Shown: positions 8,877-18,324 of the stretch, piece by piece
Layout of the letters: every line of letters begins with the position of its first letter
How positions within the stretch are numbered: position 1 is the stretch's first letter
Source of the DNA: an uncultured virus (IMG/VR IMGVR_UViG_3300008259_004750)
Taxonomy: Duplodnaviria > Heunggongvirae > Uroviricota > Caudoviricetes
Reading direction: 5' to 3' (one strand)
Virus record (IMG/VR): IMGVR_UViG_3300008259_004750
Location: 53,073 to 73,072 of that record
Length of the DNA: 20,000 bases
Notes under the pieces: generated by a model
Told to the model about the DNA's origin: nothing
What the model saw: the letters and a program-made list of their open reading frames with translations, nothing else
Database searches by the model: none
Position numbers and translations under genes: made by a program

Positions 8877-8909
8877 TTTGTCAGTTATCTAATTTTTTTT
8901 TTATCTTTG
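8877..8909 (+). promoter_or_regulatory. Bacteroidota-type primary-sigma promoter (-33 TTTG / -7 TAnnTTTG)
   Basis: TTTG 8877-8880, 21-nt spacer, TATCTTTG 8902-8909, upstream of the ORF at 8936. Confidence 0.7.
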
Positions 8910-8935: not shown

Positions 8936-9361
8936 ATGAACATTATTAAGACAAAACTGAAAAAACTTTACTCAAAATTTATTATTTGGTCTCAGAAAAA
9001 AATTAAAGCAAATCAAAGGAGTAAAGAAGAGAATATTAAAACTTGTGTTTCAATATGTCGCAAATTAATAAAACACGAAAGTTCTAAGTTTGTTATCGCA
9101 CCTATATCGGGTAAAAAATATATTAAAAATAAAGAGCTAGGTCTTTTTGTAATTCTAGATGGTGGTAAAGTTAGTATCACAAACCACGTTTACCATTATG
9201 ATATATTTTTAGATTTGAAAGAGTGGGATAGTGTTGTACGAATGTATGATGCGAGAACCGAAAAAGAAGTACAAGTATATGAAAATGAAATAAAATCTCA
9301 GATTGAGGTCTCCCTATCAACGATACTTACAAAAGTTAGTGAAAATAATTTAGTTATTTAA
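8936..9361 (+). CDS. Hypothetical basic protein, probably early-expressed
   Basis: 141-aa ORF downstream of the host-type promoter. Confidence 0.7.
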   Translation: MNIIKTKLKKLYSKFIIWSQKKIKANQRSKEENIKTCVSICRKLIKHESSKFVIAPISGKKYIKNKELGLFVILDGGKVSITNHVYHYDIFLDLKEWDSVVRMYDARTEKEVQVYENEIKSQIEVSLSTILTKVSENNLVI

Positions 9362-14886: not shown

Positions 14887-14948
14887 TAAAATTGTTTTCG
14901 AGTTTTGTTTAACTTTATAAATTAGACAAACAACAAAATAGTATAGAC

Positions 14949-14977
14949 AAAAAAAAGGGGTTCATTATGAACCCCTT
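14949..14977 (-). terminator. Intrinsic terminator after the beta-barrel gene
   Basis: Inverted repeat AAGGGGTTCAT/ATGAACCCCTT with an A8 tract (U tract on the minus strand). Confidence 0.85.
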
Positions 14978-14998
14978 AATAATTAATTAATATAATGT

Positions 14999-15790
14999 TT
15001 AAAACATAATCTGTAAATTGGCGGTAATTGGTCTATTAGCAACAGTTGGGTTTGGTACAATTGCGGTTTTATACATAGGATTCACCATTATAGTTAAACG
15101 ACTTTGAGCGTCGGTAGTTTTAGAGAACTGCAATGTTCTTTTAATTACAACTCCTACATTTGTAAAACCAGCTTTAGATTGGAAGTTTAACTGTGATTCA
15201 CCTGTGACATACCCAACAAATAAATCGGCATTGTAATCTAAGTGATAAGTTGCCTCAATATACGCAGCTCCTCTTTTATACGCTTCATTTTGATAAAATA
15301 CAAAGCTACCCCATAAGTCAATTCTTGATTTAAGGTCTCCTTTATATTTTAACGCCAACTCAAAAAAGTGATTTGTTGTTGCTTTGTCAAAATGGAAAAA
15401 AGAAGTATCTGATTGGGTTGGGGTGTTTTGATTAAAATAAACATCCTGTATTCCTATTGATGTGTTATACACATTAAAAAACATTCCGTTTTTAACAGTA
15501 TTACCGTATCCATCTTTAAATTGATTGTATACAACACAAGCTTCTGAATTTAATGTAAACCAATCAACTGGTTGATAGTCGGCTTCCATTTTTATTACAG
15601 GTTGTTTACCAACGTCCATACCTCTCCATAAATTACTTGTCGCCATTCCGTATTCACTCGTAAATGGACTTTGTTTTTTCTTTGGTTTAAAGAATAACCC
15701 TTGTTCAGTTGTATCGGCAATTGAAGTTTGTCCAATCGCAAATATTGATACGAACATCATTAGGGTTAAAAATAAAATTTGTTTTTTCAT
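14999..15790 (-). CDS. Outer-membrane beta-barrel protein (TorF/Gcw_chp-like putative porin)
   Basis: Signal peptide ..AIG|Q; TSNLWRG motif; alternating amphipathic strands; GFTNVGV; terminal Phe. Confidence 0.7.
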   Translation of the reverse strand: MKKQILFLTLMMFVSIFAIGQTSIADTTEQGLFFKPKKKQSPFTSEYGMATSNLWRGMDVGKQPVIKMEADYQPVDWFTLNSEACVVYNQFKDGYGNTVKNGMFFNVYNTSIGIQDVYFNQNTPTQSDTSFFHFDKATTNHFFELALKYKGDLKSRIDLWGSFVFYQNEAYKRGAAYIEATYHLDYNADLFVGYVTGESQLNFQSKAGFTNVGVVIKRTLQFSKTTDAQSRLTIMVNPMYKTAIVPNPTVANRPITANLQIMF

Positions 15791-15821
15791 TTTTTGTTTT
15801 TTAAAATTTATTTATAGTATT

Positions 15822-15831
15822 CATAAATATA
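15822..15831 (-). promoter_or_regulatory. Putative late promoter TATATTTATG
   Basis: 31 nt upstream of the beta-barrel start. Confidence 0.55.
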
Positions 15832-15859
15832 TAAAATTTTACCAAATTTGTAAATTACA

Positions 15860-15891
15860 TTTGGAGATTACTAATTTTCGATATATATTTG
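15860..15891 (+). promoter_or_regulatory. Bacteroidota-type primary-sigma promoter with no downstream ORF
   Basis: TTTG 15860-15863, 20-nt spacer, TATATTTG 15884-15891. Confidence 0.65.
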
Positions 15892-15896
15892 TAAAA

Positions 15897-15980
15897 CATT
15901 TGAAAACAAGGTTAGAACGAAACAATCCTAATCTTTAGGTGGGTTGGAAGACGATTAAGATACAAGGCCCACCTTATTTA
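15897..15980 (+). ncRNA. Candidate two-hairpin small RNA
   Basis: Stems 15908-15915/15928-15935 and 15937-15945/15966-15974, with G-U pairs valid only on +. Promoter upstream and U-rich tail. Confidence 0.5.
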
Positions 15981-16391
15981 TCTCCATAAAACCAATTGAT
16001 TTCTACCAACTCTAAATGGGTTTTCTTCAGATTCTCTGAAAACTGTAGTTATAATAAGCTTCCAATATGTCCCATCAACATGAACAGGAGTAACAGGAAC
16101 CGCGAGCTCCCAATTTAATGATTTTAATATAAAAGATTCATCATCTTTTATTTCACCACTAACTATTTTTTCAGAAATCTCTCTAATAAATAAACTTACA
16201 AATTCTTTTAGTTCGGAATTTGATATTTCTCTTTGATTATACGAATCGCCCAATTCGGGTCTTGTTGCTCTATCAAAAGCATGTTTTTTCCTATCGACCT
16301 CAAAATTAAAAATTATTTTTAACTCAGAAGATATTTGAGCAATTCTTTTTTCTAATAATAAATGTTCTTTTATTATTTTTCTAAGTGTCAT
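15978..16391 (-). CDS. Propeptide-bearing protein with possible RelE/BECR-like RNase fold
   Basis: LRKIIKEHLLLE leader; HAFDRATR...ISNSEL...LIITTVFR pattern. Confidence 0.55.
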   Translation of the reverse strand: MTLRKIIKEHLLLEKRIAQISSELKIIFNFEVDRKKHAFDRATRPELGDSYNQREISNSELKEFVSLFIREISEKIVSGEIKDDESFILKSLNWELAVPVTPVHVDGTYWKLIITTVFRESEENPFRVGRNQLVLWR

Positions 16392-16395
16392 TTTA

Positions 16396-16405
16396 CATAA
16401 ATATC
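16396..16405 (-). promoter_or_regulatory. Putative late promoter GATATTTATG
   Basis: Between the MCP terminator and the start at 16391. Confidence 0.65.
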
Positions 16406-16421
16406 CCCAATTAATAAAAAT

Positions 16422-16450
16422 AAAAAAGGTCAGATTTCTCTGACCTTTTT
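16422..16450 (-). terminator. Intrinsic terminator of the scaffold-capsid operon
   Basis: AAAAAGGTCAGA-TTTC-TCTGACCTTTTT; GAAA loop on the minus strand. Confidence 0.9.
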
Positions 16451-16470
16451 ATTATTCTAAAGATAATTGA

Positions 16471-18324
16471 TTATCTCAATTCTCTTAAGTCGAATGAACG
16501 AACACCATCAACTGTGATACGTCCGTAGAAACGGTTATTAACCATTTTCTTAGCGTAACGTGTCATGATACCCTTGATAGGTGTAAAGTTGAATGGATTG
16601 TACATAGTTGGAGTTAATTGAAGTGGTACATACGGTGCGTAAATGTAACCAGTATCAAGTAACGATGTACCTTTGTGACCAATCAATACTTGGTTTGGTG
16701 GGAAGTATGGGTCACGATATACTTGGTAACGACCAGCAAGTGTACCCACTCTTTCAATACCCATGTTGTATTGGTCTTGCTCAGGTGATGCGTTAGAAAC
16801 GTGGAAGTATTCTAAGTCATCAAAGATTGCAGAAACCTCAGATGATACAACAATCCAGTTAGCTCCACCACGAAGTGTTGACTTGTGGATTTGAGCTGAT
16901 AATTGGTTAATTGCCGTAATCAAAGTTTGGTTCCAGTCTTTCTGAGTGTAAGAAGTTGTGTTAGCAAGTCTTCTCCATCCGTTGTAGTCCCAACGTAAAT
17001 TCCAAGCCGCACCTTTACGAAGGTCACGAAGGATTTCACGGTCAATTTCAGCCGCAACTTGTTCTGACAACAATGCTGTCAATTCAGCTTCAGCGTCAAT
17101 GTTGTGGAATGCCGCAACGTCTTGAGCAAGTTCTGGTGACCATTGTGCTCTCAACTTTCTTTCAGTTACAGAAACTGTTACTGACTCAAGGTCGAAAGAA
17201 ACTTCACCAATCTTGTCTTCAAATTCTAACTCTTCATAACGTCTCCAAGCCGCGTAGAACGAAGTAGTCGTAGCCGCAGATGTGATAGTTGCACCAGTGT
17301 AACCATCGATAGTGTCAGAACCACATGTAGGACATGCAGGACATGATAAGTCAACCTCAAGATAAATAAAACCTTGTGGTGAACAGATGTCATCATACTG
17401 ACCACCATTACCTTGTGTTGGCCATGATGCTGTTCTTTGATTGTAGTTTGGATTAATAATTGCTCTACCGTATTGTTGAGTAACTACTCTATACAATAGA
17501 GGTCCTGATGAAAGTGCGCAAGGGCTACTAGGTGCAGTAAGACCTGAACCTGAATAAATGATTAAGTTCGATAAGAAAGATTCTGTATCATATTCAGCAC
17601 CATCAGGAGCGGTAAGTTTACCAGCACCTGTATTAGAAAATCCTGAAAGACCGATAGTAATTTTTCTTGTGTTACCGGCATAAGAGGCTGAAGATGTTTG
17701 AGGTGCCAATGCGCCGTTTTGCCATGTCATAACAATACAGTTAGATGTAATTGCAGACCAACGACCTTTTGAATAGTCAAAAAGACCTGCTGGGTCAAGA
17801 CCTGGCTCAGAACCTTCATAGAATAAATCGTAAAGGTTTTTAGCGTATGTACCATTGTAAGAACCGTTAGATAACGTGTAACCTGAATTAGGGTCACCAG
17901 GATAATTACCAGGTGAACCTACAGGTGCGTAGTGTTGACCTGAATTAACGTCATAAGCTCCAGTTCCAGCACCAGTACCATCTTGGTAACCCTGAATCTT
18001 TGGTACAAAGTAGAACAATTTACCGATTGGTAGGTTCATAGCTTGTACTGAAACGATTTCATTAGCAAGTAATTTTGAGAATACTCTTCTAACGATAGGG
18101 AATACAACAGTTTCAAAAGAACCTGATGAACCGTCTGAAGTTGCTTCGTTTATCAAGAAGCTAGCTTGGTTTTCATAAAGCTGAGCTACGTTCTCTTTTA
18201 GGTGACCACGAAGGCCTTCAAGGAACCCTAATTTGTCCCATTTGTTAATAGTATCTTCCTTGATAACTTTAAGGTGCTTAAGACCAATGTTACCAACAAG
18301 ACCTGATTCTAATAATGCTCCCAT
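16471..18324 (-). CDS. gp23: Major capsid protein, T4 gp23 family
   Basis: PIVRRVF..LANEIVSVQAM, RKLRAQWSPELAQD, DAEAELTALLSEQVAAEIDREI, YAPYVPL and GIMTRY motifs. Confidence 0.97.
   Translation of the reverse strand: MGALLESGLVGNIGLKHLKVIKEDTINKWDKLGFLEGLRGHLKENVAQLYENQASFLINEATSDGSSGSFETVVFPIVRRVFSKLLANEIVSVQAMNLPIGKLFYFVPKIQGYQDGTGAGTGAYDVNSGQHYAPVGSPGNYPGDPNSGYTLSNGSYNGTYAKNLYDLFYEGSEPGLDPAGLFDYSKGRWSAITSNCIVMTWQNGALAPQTSSASYAGNTRKITIGLSGFSNTGAGKLTAPDGAEYDTESFLSNLIIYSGSGLTAPSSPCALSSGPLLYRVVTQQYGRAIINPNYNQRTASWPTQGNGGQYDDICSPQGFIYLEVDLSCPACPTCGSDTIDGYTGATITSAATTTSFYAAWRRYEELEFEDKIGEVSFDLESVTVSVTERKLRAQWSPELAQDVAAFHNIDAEAELTALLSEQVAAEIDREILRDLRKGAAWNLRWDYNGWRRLANTTSYTQKDWNQTLITAINQLSAQIHKSTLRGGANWIVVSSEVSAIFDDLEYFHVSNASPEQDQYNMGIERVGTLAGRYQVYRDPYFPPNQVLIGHKGTSLLDTGYIYAPYVPLQLTPTMYNPFNFTPIKGIMTRYAKKMVNNRFYGRITVDGVRSFDLRELR

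Follow-up and report, generated by a model that had tools for sequence, protein, structure and literature searches.

We uncovered a new family of phage-encoded structured RNAs, prototyped by a predicted small RNA on the + strand of a 20,000-nucleotide stretch (hereinafter the window) of the uncultured virus IMGVR_UViG_3300008259_004750, which represents the final 20 kb of a virus contig of 73,072 bp that is rated 25% complete. The family is well supported, with strongly covarying stems, a near-invariant loop and a promoter motif of its own, and we hold its representative in the window to be very probably a real structured small-RNA gene. In the phages that bear it, this gene is regularly found in convergent orientation with a gene coding for a 137-aa protein, here termed c0, that possibly adopts a RelE/RegB-like fold. 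The two present a new variant of RNA–protein gene pairing, wherein the RNA would be expressed from a host-type promoter and may act on a protein through its loops. The RNA occurs widely among freshwater phages, with genomes as large as 635 kb, and it offers two leads: its pairing with an uncharacterised family of RelE/RegB-looking proteins, and its recurrence at the head of tRNA arrays and of the functionally uncharacterised GOLLD RNA.

Covarying stems and near-invariant loops define the family

The original prediction of a structured RNA at this site, which was made from the letters of the window, had called for homologues with a covariation analysis and for a comparison with Rfam. The former yielded 29 distinct homologues that keep both of the hairpins (H1 and H2), with covarying stems and near-invariant loops. 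In the DNA around homologues of the flanking proteins, several diverged phages showed the same two hairpins, alike in their loops but not in their stems; in other close relatives of the flanking 263-aa gene the element is absent at this site. A scan of viral contigs with the exact H2 loop matched 29 stretches, 26 of which are real members of the family, and the same scan of metagenome contigs matched 83, with ~38 real members among the 80 retrieved. The scan of 185,579 species genomes returned 12 pattern matches and no hairpin, and 401 sampled Bacteroidota genomes gave 26 motif matches, again with no hairpin; within the collections searched the RNA is confined to phages. A looser two-part pattern retrieved 70 stretches from the viral contigs, with, by our reading, hairpins in none of the new ones.

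Since the viral and metagenome collections overlap, the 61 pooled instances were reduced to 29 distinct 78-nt cores. In a plain MAFFT alignment of these cores, 79.6% of the cells pair as against 68.2% in shuffled alignments, with none of 500 shuffles reaching the former level, and 16 of the 19 pairs change on both sides (8/10 in H1 and 8/9 in H2). When the partner columns are slid as a control, pairing falls to 30–54%. RNAalifold independently recovered these helices, and 10 of the 16 pairs that it called are compensatory. The inner pairs of H1 are A-U, G-U or G-C in the relatives, and covariation adds two pairs to the H1 stem, so that the 12-nt loop originally assigned to this hairpin shrinks to the 8-nt loop CGAAACAA. 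A loop–loop contact (AAUC with GAUU) that had been put forward likewise drops out: it has no covariation support, and its H1 half falls inside the extended stem.

The basic unit of the family is a hairpin with a ~20-nt loop that contains the core ACrAUUnAGAUAC, present in one to four copies per RNA. A looser loop pattern together with covariance models revealed several other arrangements: some RNAs have one more copy upstream, some have three hairpins, and others consist of two to four hairpins in tandem or of a single hairpin. When the hairpin is taken alone (47 distinct sequences), 10/10 pairs covary and pairing stands at 84.5% versus 53.3%, a figure that is partly built in because these hairpins were pre-selected for a stem of at least 6. 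A second set of 37 distinct hairpins, retrieved via the neighbouring c0 gene and thus unbiased as to the loop, shows the core at least 90% conserved, 86.0% pairing versus 47.5% in shuffles and covariation of 10/10 pairs in a model-fitted alignment. In most loops of this set, the first bases are GGA or GGG, and an A-rich run comes next.

Tandem conserved-loop hairpins within one transcription unit are seen in the loci L254 (four, ~48 nt apart), L298 (two) and L432 (three), and the hairpin copy number therefore differs among phages. A further promoter-plus-hairpin unit, with a longer loop that contains AAGAUAC, lies just upstream of the conserved hairpin in L227 (~1440–1490) and may be a diverged relative of it. 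The 73-kb contig itself holds one copy of the hairpin RNA.

The + strand of the window folds into exactly the two hairpins that had been named at the outset (-18.9 kcal/mol; H1, 15908–15915 with 15928–15935; H2, 15937–15945 with 15966–15974 around a 20-nt loop; tail, UAUUUAU). The three G-U pairs noted earlier recur, one in H1 and two in H2, as does the ACGA...ACAA motif in both loops. The fold energy of this single sequence has a z of -1.59, 11 of 200 shuffles folding equally well, and the minus strand takes a different fold that is no better (-18.6 kcal/mol, z -0.99). The promoter pattern has 3 matches in the window against 1.45 expected, and at least 3 occur in 38/200 shuffles. Fold and promoter pattern of the window sequence alone are not beyond chance; we judge the element to be real from its relatives, in which the stems covary and both the loops and a promoter motif upstream are conserved.

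The RNA is predicted to be transcribed from its own promoter

In Bacteroidota, promoters of the housekeeping sigma factor have the consensus TTTG at -33 and TAnnTTTG at -7. Both elements lie upstream of the RNA at a 20-nt spacing (~19–21 being required), in the form TTTG-N20-TATATTTG at 15860–15891 (+), and the predicted promoter thus stands as first described. Among the relatives, TAnnTTTG occurs on the same strand at most 110 nt upstream in 46/54 distinct hairpin units, versus 10/54 in a mirror control, and ends 11–15 nt before the loop in 30 units. G-U pairs on the + strand outnumber A-C mismatches by 62 to 31. Because the stems covary, the G-U pairs prevail in this manner and the promoter motif is conserved upstream, a + strand RNA gene is supported. 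The 5′ end of the RNA was placed a few bases after the -7 element and the 3′ end within the U-rich tail, and the covariance model (R1) built for the family scores 91.6 bits on 15904–15981.

The U runs after the last hairpin are clear in several lineages, and a separate terminator occurs among the relatives; at least 6 T in the 10 nt after H2 are found in 14/29. The asymmetry of U runs was discarded as a test of strand, being uninformative (14/29 versus 10/29). A terminator scan called none at the element on either strand, and none on the minus strand between c0 and the next gene. The evidence supports a separate + strand structured small-RNA gene of the phage with a predicted promoter and not merely the terminator of the 15978–16391 gene, a possibility that the original prediction had kept in view, because the hairpin with its own promoter also occurs without a convergent gene, ahead of GOLLD and of tRNA arrays. 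Of the sampled words of window positions 15000–17000, 11–17% are present in freshwater and riverine metatranscriptome runs, which is uninformative on the expression of the RNA.

Table 1. Parts of the small RNA gene and its convergent neighbour, in window coordinates
Feature	Position	Strand	Basis or remark
-33 element TTTG of a Bacteroidota-type promoter	15860–15863	+	Sequence; 20 nt before the -7 element
-7 element TATATTTG (TAnnTTTG)	15884–15891	+	Sequence; motif conserved upstream in relatives
Predicted small RNA, ~85 nt	15897–15983	+	Fold and covariance-model match; both ends placed by prediction
Hairpin H1, 10-position stem including one A-C mismatch	15908–15935	+	Covariation
8-nt loop of H1, CGAAACAA	15918–15925	+	Covariation-extended stem
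Hairpin H2, 9-bp stem, two U-G pairs adjoining the loop	15937–15974	+	Covariation
20-nt loop of H2: GGA and A-rich run, then core ACGAUUAAGAUAC	15946–15965	+	Loop conservation
U-rich tail UAUUUAUCU, weak terminator tail overlapping the stop codon of the convergent c0	15975–15983	+	Sequence
c0, gene for a 137-aa protein convergent with the RNA	15978–16391	-	Possible RelE/RegB-like fold

Gene-neighborhood analysis links the RNA to c0

In 30/43 distinct contexts of the multi-hairpin RNA, c0 is convergent with it, its stop codon lying against the last hairpin. Proceeding in the opposite direction from c0, we confirmed 147 loci in viral contigs, and in all of the best 80 of these a convergent small-RNA gene accompanies c0: in 65 it belongs to this hairpin family, with the hairpin on the opposite strand within ~130 nt of the c0 stop codon, and in the remaining 15 it is a second new RNA. 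The RNA–c0 pair is found in different neighbourhoods, such as beside the capsid gene, after a sigma-70 gene and after a NUDIX gene.

The second RNA is an uncatalogued and highly conserved element of ~140 nt, which is located ~160 nt after the c0 stop codon on the opposite strand (loci L378–L379, L383–L387, L403, L406, L407, L409, L412, L419, L434 and L435). It has its own TAnnTTTG promoter and a GC-rich canonical terminator, with 88% mean column identity over 12 aligned sequences, and no Rfam match was found for it. Two interleaved complementary segments near its 5′ end suggest that it forms a pseudoknot there. As to the phage sigma-70 family gene (with regions 2 and 4), in one lineage (L035, 560–1372, + strand; also L149 and L170) it lies on the strand of the small RNA and ends ~60 nt ahead of it.

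The family of c0 is virus-only, with 277 close proteins that fall into 132 representatives upon clustering at 50%. The protein looks soluble and is predicted to be an alpha/beta globular domain, in which E14, H37 and T116 are near-invariant and R41, R44 and R119 are common. Neither Pfam nor PHROG assigns it a function, and PDB sequences and the protein atlas also returned nothing; when Pfam was searched at E-values of up to 10, no consistent family emerged across 34 members of the c0 family and none on 28 distant members. Two AlphaFold2 models of c0 (pLDDT 75.5 and 88.8) share one layout, with an N-terminal helix, two helices and a four-stranded sheet. In Foldseek searches with both models, almost all of the top matches are toxins of the RelE, ParE, HigB and YoeB families, with T4 RegB also listed at rank 9. 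Alignment with VIA-align, which is independent of Foldseek, gave RelE1 a Z of 5.7 (rmsd 2.9, 71 aligned) and RegB a Z of 4.2 (96 aligned), and ~23 of its first 27 matches come from the superfamily of RelE/ParE/RegB-type RNase toxins. From these low-scoring matches, we take a RelE/ParE/RegB-type fold to be somewhat more likely than not for c0.

Single hairpins head tRNA arrays and GOLLD islands

A parallel set of associations comes from stand-alone hairpins. In 12/13 single-hairpin loci scanned, a single hairpin with its own promoter heads a tRNA array or lies 550–900 nt before GOLLD, and in 12/12 loci where such genes were found it is co-oriented with them. The phages with such arrangements range from 322 to 635 kb.

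In the relatives, GOLLD (RF02032, 287–332 bits) is usually followed by a tRNA, with the hairpin 550–900 nt upstream on the same strand; it is located at L227:2132–2525 and L228:2039–2432, in two complete genomes of ~322 kb, and further at L293, L288, L234, L236, L248, L263, L283, L270 and L439. Between hairpin and GOLLD there is a leader (L227 ~1640–1700; also L228, L293, L310 and L283) with its own TAnnTTTG, followed by a small hairpin and the conserved GTTCTTTGAAA, an arrangement which presumably resembles the boxB–boxA antitermination leader of rRNA operons. In L437 (1460–1560; LR745206.1, 635 kb), a minimal version of the gene, consisting of TTTG-N20-TATATTTG, one conserved-loop hairpin (48.7 bits) and a T run, precedes 11 arrayed tRNA genes of the same strand by ~300 nt. 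A phage tmRNA (63.1 bits), cut at the locus end, adjoins the GOLLD/hairpin island in L283 (1–389, +).

Proposed action of the RNA and competing explanations

Conserved single-stranded loops that are borne on freely varying stems and repeated one to four times point to a sequence-specific partner acting in trans, and c0 is the leading candidate for this partner because of its regular pairing with the RNA and its possible RegB/RelE-like nature. Hence, we propose a mechanism in which the host RNA polymerase would transcribe the ~85-nt RNA from the Bacteroidota-type promoter, and stems that are free to vary would present a fixed single strand, comprising GGA, an A-rich run and then ACGAUUnAGAUAC. 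The loops would constitute the working part, recognised in trans by a protein, most likely c0. The latter, as a possible endoribonuclease like RelE or T4 RegB, could be bound by the RNA as a mock substrate or inhibitor that sets when and where the enzyme acts; alternatively, c0 might cut the RNA. That the loops bind c0 or serve as its mock targets is in our estimate plausible, if somewhat short of probable. The decoy- or antitoxin-like role that was among the roles first suggested for the RNA gains circumstantially from the regular pairing with a RelE/RegB-like gene. A more elaborate version, which we consider rather unlikely, is that of a new two-gene module in which c0 would be an endoribonuclease with a RelE/RegB fold and the convergent RNA an RNA "anti-RegB", whose mock loops would hold or time the enzyme; in that case, the stand-alone hairpins of the tRNA/GOLLD islands in huge phages might serve this system as protective or docking tags.

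Several observations weigh against the proposed mechanism. The pairing is not obligatory: 13/43 RNA contexts are without c0, a complete 322-kb genome (G003) has the hairpin and no detectable c0, and two c0 homologues (48–49% identity), one in a complete 321-kb genome and the other in the 635-kb record LR745206.1, have no adjacent RNA, the hairpin being elsewhere in both genomes. Vertical inheritance of the cassette could also yield much of the 80/80 count. No sequence-level link connects c0 to any RNase family, and the fold matches are weak (Foldseek E 0.08–0.6, TM-scores ~0.3–0.5, no Z reaching 8). Not every loop begins with GG, some c0-anchored loops starting with AGAAAC. Further, the terminator tail in the window is weak, T-run counts barely differ between the strands (14/29 versus 10/29), and the transcription, ends and timing of the RNA are predictions.

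One competing explanation is that the RNA acts in trans via its loops on a factor of the translation apparatus, of host or phage, other than c0 (for instance the ribosome, an enzyme that processes or cleaves tRNA, or a function related to GOLLD), with the proximity of c0 reflecting a shared variable hotspot. We entertain it because single hairpins head tRNA arrays and GOLLD in phages of 322–635 kb, invariably on the same strand (in 12/13 loci), with the 635-kb phage record showing the same tRNA-head arrangement; G003 and the 13/43 contexts without c0 speak for it too. However, a convergent small-RNA gene accompanies c0 at every one of its 80 best loci, and at 65 of these it is the present RNA. 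A hotspot alone explains this poorly because the pair occurs in several unrelated neighbourhoods, and no candidate partner was identified. On balance, we regard a partner other than c0 as a minority option of limited likelihood. The long conserved single-stranded loop on a stable stem also has the usual shape of a seed, and one could envisage a base-pairing small RNA directed against host or phage mRNAs, in the manner of phage P1 c4 RNA or of the classical small RNAs that act in trans. Yet, the rest of the 73-kb contig is devoid of complementary sites of at least 10 nt, two complete 322-kb genomes match the loop core (both strands, up to 2 mismatches) no more often than a reversed-pattern control, and the adjacent GOLLD region has no consistent complement. 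The 16-nt motif, on both strands of the 401 Bacteroidota genomes, has 26 matches versus ~16 in the control, none in a recurring conserved complementary context. These tests apply to complements longer than the short seeds of 7–9 nt, which they do not reach, and we view a base-pairing role as improbable.

The convergent layout, in which the RNA tail overlaps the c0 stop codon, likewise invites comparison with type I toxin–antitoxin systems that overlap at their 3′ ends, whereby the RNA would pair in cis with the 3′ end of the c0 transcript or with a late polycistronic transcript of the minus strand. The regular pairing with c0 and the lack of a called minus-strand terminator between c0 and the next gene are in line with this. 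As annotated, the RNA tail reaches the c0 stop codon only, and any greater antisense overlap would depend on read-through of the c0 transcript. Against it, such antisense action needs neither conserved loops nor covarying stems, a bidirectional terminator separates c0 from the RNA in some lineages (L045, L048, L056), the same hairpin occurs as a stand-alone unit with no gene opposite, and c0, as a soluble-looking protein of 137 aa, is unlike typical type I toxins; antisense action in cis is therefore distinctly improbable in our estimate. Finally, the position of the element directly after the stop codon of the 15978–16391 gene could suggest a terminator or insulator of the minus-strand genes, or an element acting at the DNA level, with no RNA product. 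This is largely refuted, and we accord it a very low probability: the scan calls nothing on either strand, the loop is 20 nt long where an intrinsic terminator would have 3–8 nt, H2 read on the minus strand has no U run after it, the balance of G-U pairs speaks for the + strand, conservation extends to the loop sequence, a promoter motif is situated upstream, and the hairpin also occurs away from any gene end. We thus retain, tentatively, the interpretation in which the loops address c0.

Genomic setting of the locus

The RNA is housed in a 187-nt spacer (15791–15977) between two minus-strand open reading frames (ORFs), 14999–15790 and 15978–16391, that is, between the 263-aa gene starting at 15790 and c0, which stops at 15978. 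As had been noted, the spacer is free of ORFs (none of at least 40 aa) and the hairpins are locally GC-richer, at 0.418 versus 0.13–0.24 in other intergenic stretches and 0.325 in the whole window. A scan of the window for tRNA and tmRNA found none, and blastn of 14900–16500 against named phage records returned zero matches. The window also codes for a T4-type major capsid protein of the Gp23 family (16471–18324, minus strand), a subtilase and a non-specific endonuclease. In the relatives, neighbouring genes carry type IX secretion sorting domains, which points to Bacteroidota as the hosts of these phages; the complete relatives have genomes of 321–322 kb.

A further motif, TATTTATA, had been reported on the + strand at 15809–15816. 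Its position holds, and we prefer a reading on the minus strand, as TATAAATA, 19 nt before the ATG (15790) of the 263-aa gene. We take TATAAATA to be the T4-type late-promoter consensus, and similar motifs are found upstream of other minus-strand genes in relatives (L355, L032, L034). A second full match to TTTG-N(18-22)-TAnnTTTG occurs at 8877–8909 (+), in the spacer just before a + strand gene starting at 8936; this is in all probability a host-type promoter of the ordinary sort. Many relatives encode a 226-aa protein (cluster c3; for example L032:1535–2212, - strand) between c0 and the capsid gene. It has no Pfam match; in our reading, its alignment includes the H-x-D-H ... N pattern that HNH endonucleases typically show, and the protein is possibly a mobile endonuclease that occupies a variable spot. 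Both c3 and c24 (CHU_C) were considered as relatives of c0 and found to be unrelated to it.

Comparison with known systems

To our knowledge, few small RNAs of phages are known outside model phages, and none is known to have been described from jumbo phages of Bacteroidota. The comparison with Rfam, which had been proposed at the outset, gave 0 Rfam 15 matches in the window at gathering thresholds, and loose thresholds on 15700–16100 produced two chance-level matches only (E 4.3 and 7.9). In the loci of relatives, the only Rfam matches are GOLLD, tRNA and tmRNA, all at other positions. The literature that we searched on phage structured RNAs, huge phages and RegB/RelE contains no description of this RNA or of the RNA–c0 pair, and the 13-nt loop strings occur in no relevant paper. 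The viral candidate structured RNAs of one catalogue (PMC10690425), as far as its main-text passages describe them, resemble the present family in their IMG/VR data source and covariation-type evidence. These passages do not name the RNA family and six of our contig identifiers are absent from the 6 supplementary files searched; the catalogue may list the family without describing it.

A possible RNase beside a small RNA that has its own promoter and a repeated motif (one to four copies) recalls the type III toxin–antitoxin systems of the ToxIN kind. In the latter, the RNA consists of direct repeats in tandem, which the toxin binds and processes; they are encoded on the toxin strand ahead of the toxin gene and set apart from it by a terminator. 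In contrast, the RNA described here is convergent with c0 in all 80 loci, its repeats are hairpins of differing stems rather than tandem identical repeats, the predicted fold of c0 is RelE-like and not ToxN-like, and the pair is borne by jumbo phages of a lytic type. In its convergent orientation and in the differing stems of its repeats, the RNA departs from a type III antitoxin RNA. The CsrB/RsmZ RNAs similarly display the same short GGA-containing loop on several hairpins, with variation in both the number of hairpins and their stems; unlike them, the phage-encoded RNA (55–150 nt) has a much longer and different loop motif, and we know of no CsrA-type partner for it. With respect to GOLLD and the phage tRNA islands, the likeness lies in the single hairpins placed just upstream on the same strand in phages of 322–635 kb. 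The differences are that the hairpin has its own promoter, with another promoter-like site in between, that no complementarity to GOLLD was found, and that GOLLD is absent from the contig of the window (25% complete).

Certain other identities were rejected. The promoter-early stem-loop (PeSL) cassettes of T4-type phages come in many copies per genome and have flanking small ORFs, whereas the RNA is present in one copy in the 73-kb contig and one strong copy per complete 322-kb genome, and has no same-strand ORF downstream. As a globular alpha/beta protein of 137 aa, and not a small hydrophobic peptide, c0 does not qualify as a type I toxin. Host mimicry, be it of a CRISPR repeat, an antitoxin or a host small RNA, was set aside since neither the species genomes nor the 401 sampled Bacteroidota genomes hold a copy of the hairpin.

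A further parallel is with T4 RegB, for which we know of no RNA partner. Like RegB, c0 is encoded in a T4-like phage setting, with the Gp23 capsid gene next door. According to a T4 review (PMC3014915), RegB has the fold of RelE and YoeB, to which it adds a first helix, and the question is raised there as to whether T4 encodes an anti-RegB partner; the models of c0, with their extra N-terminal helix, two helices and four-stranded sheet, match the layout that this review gives for RegB relative to RelE/YoeB. According to a study of its targets (PMC1702504), what RegB recognises together with ribosomal protein S1 is an 11-nt single strand with GGA and then an A-rich run. The single-stranded loops of the RNA are similar in form, most of them opening with GGA or GGG and continuing with an A-rich run. 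Unlike RegB targets, the loops add the conserved core ACGAUUnAGAUAC, which has no counterpart there, and c0 itself has no sequence similarity to RegB, with a low structural score (Z 4.2). If the pairing is functional, it would provide the first RNA partner for a RelE-fold nuclease and an answer to the question of the T4 RegB partner; if it is not, the hairpin would still offer a new way into the islands of non-coding RNA that huge phages carry.

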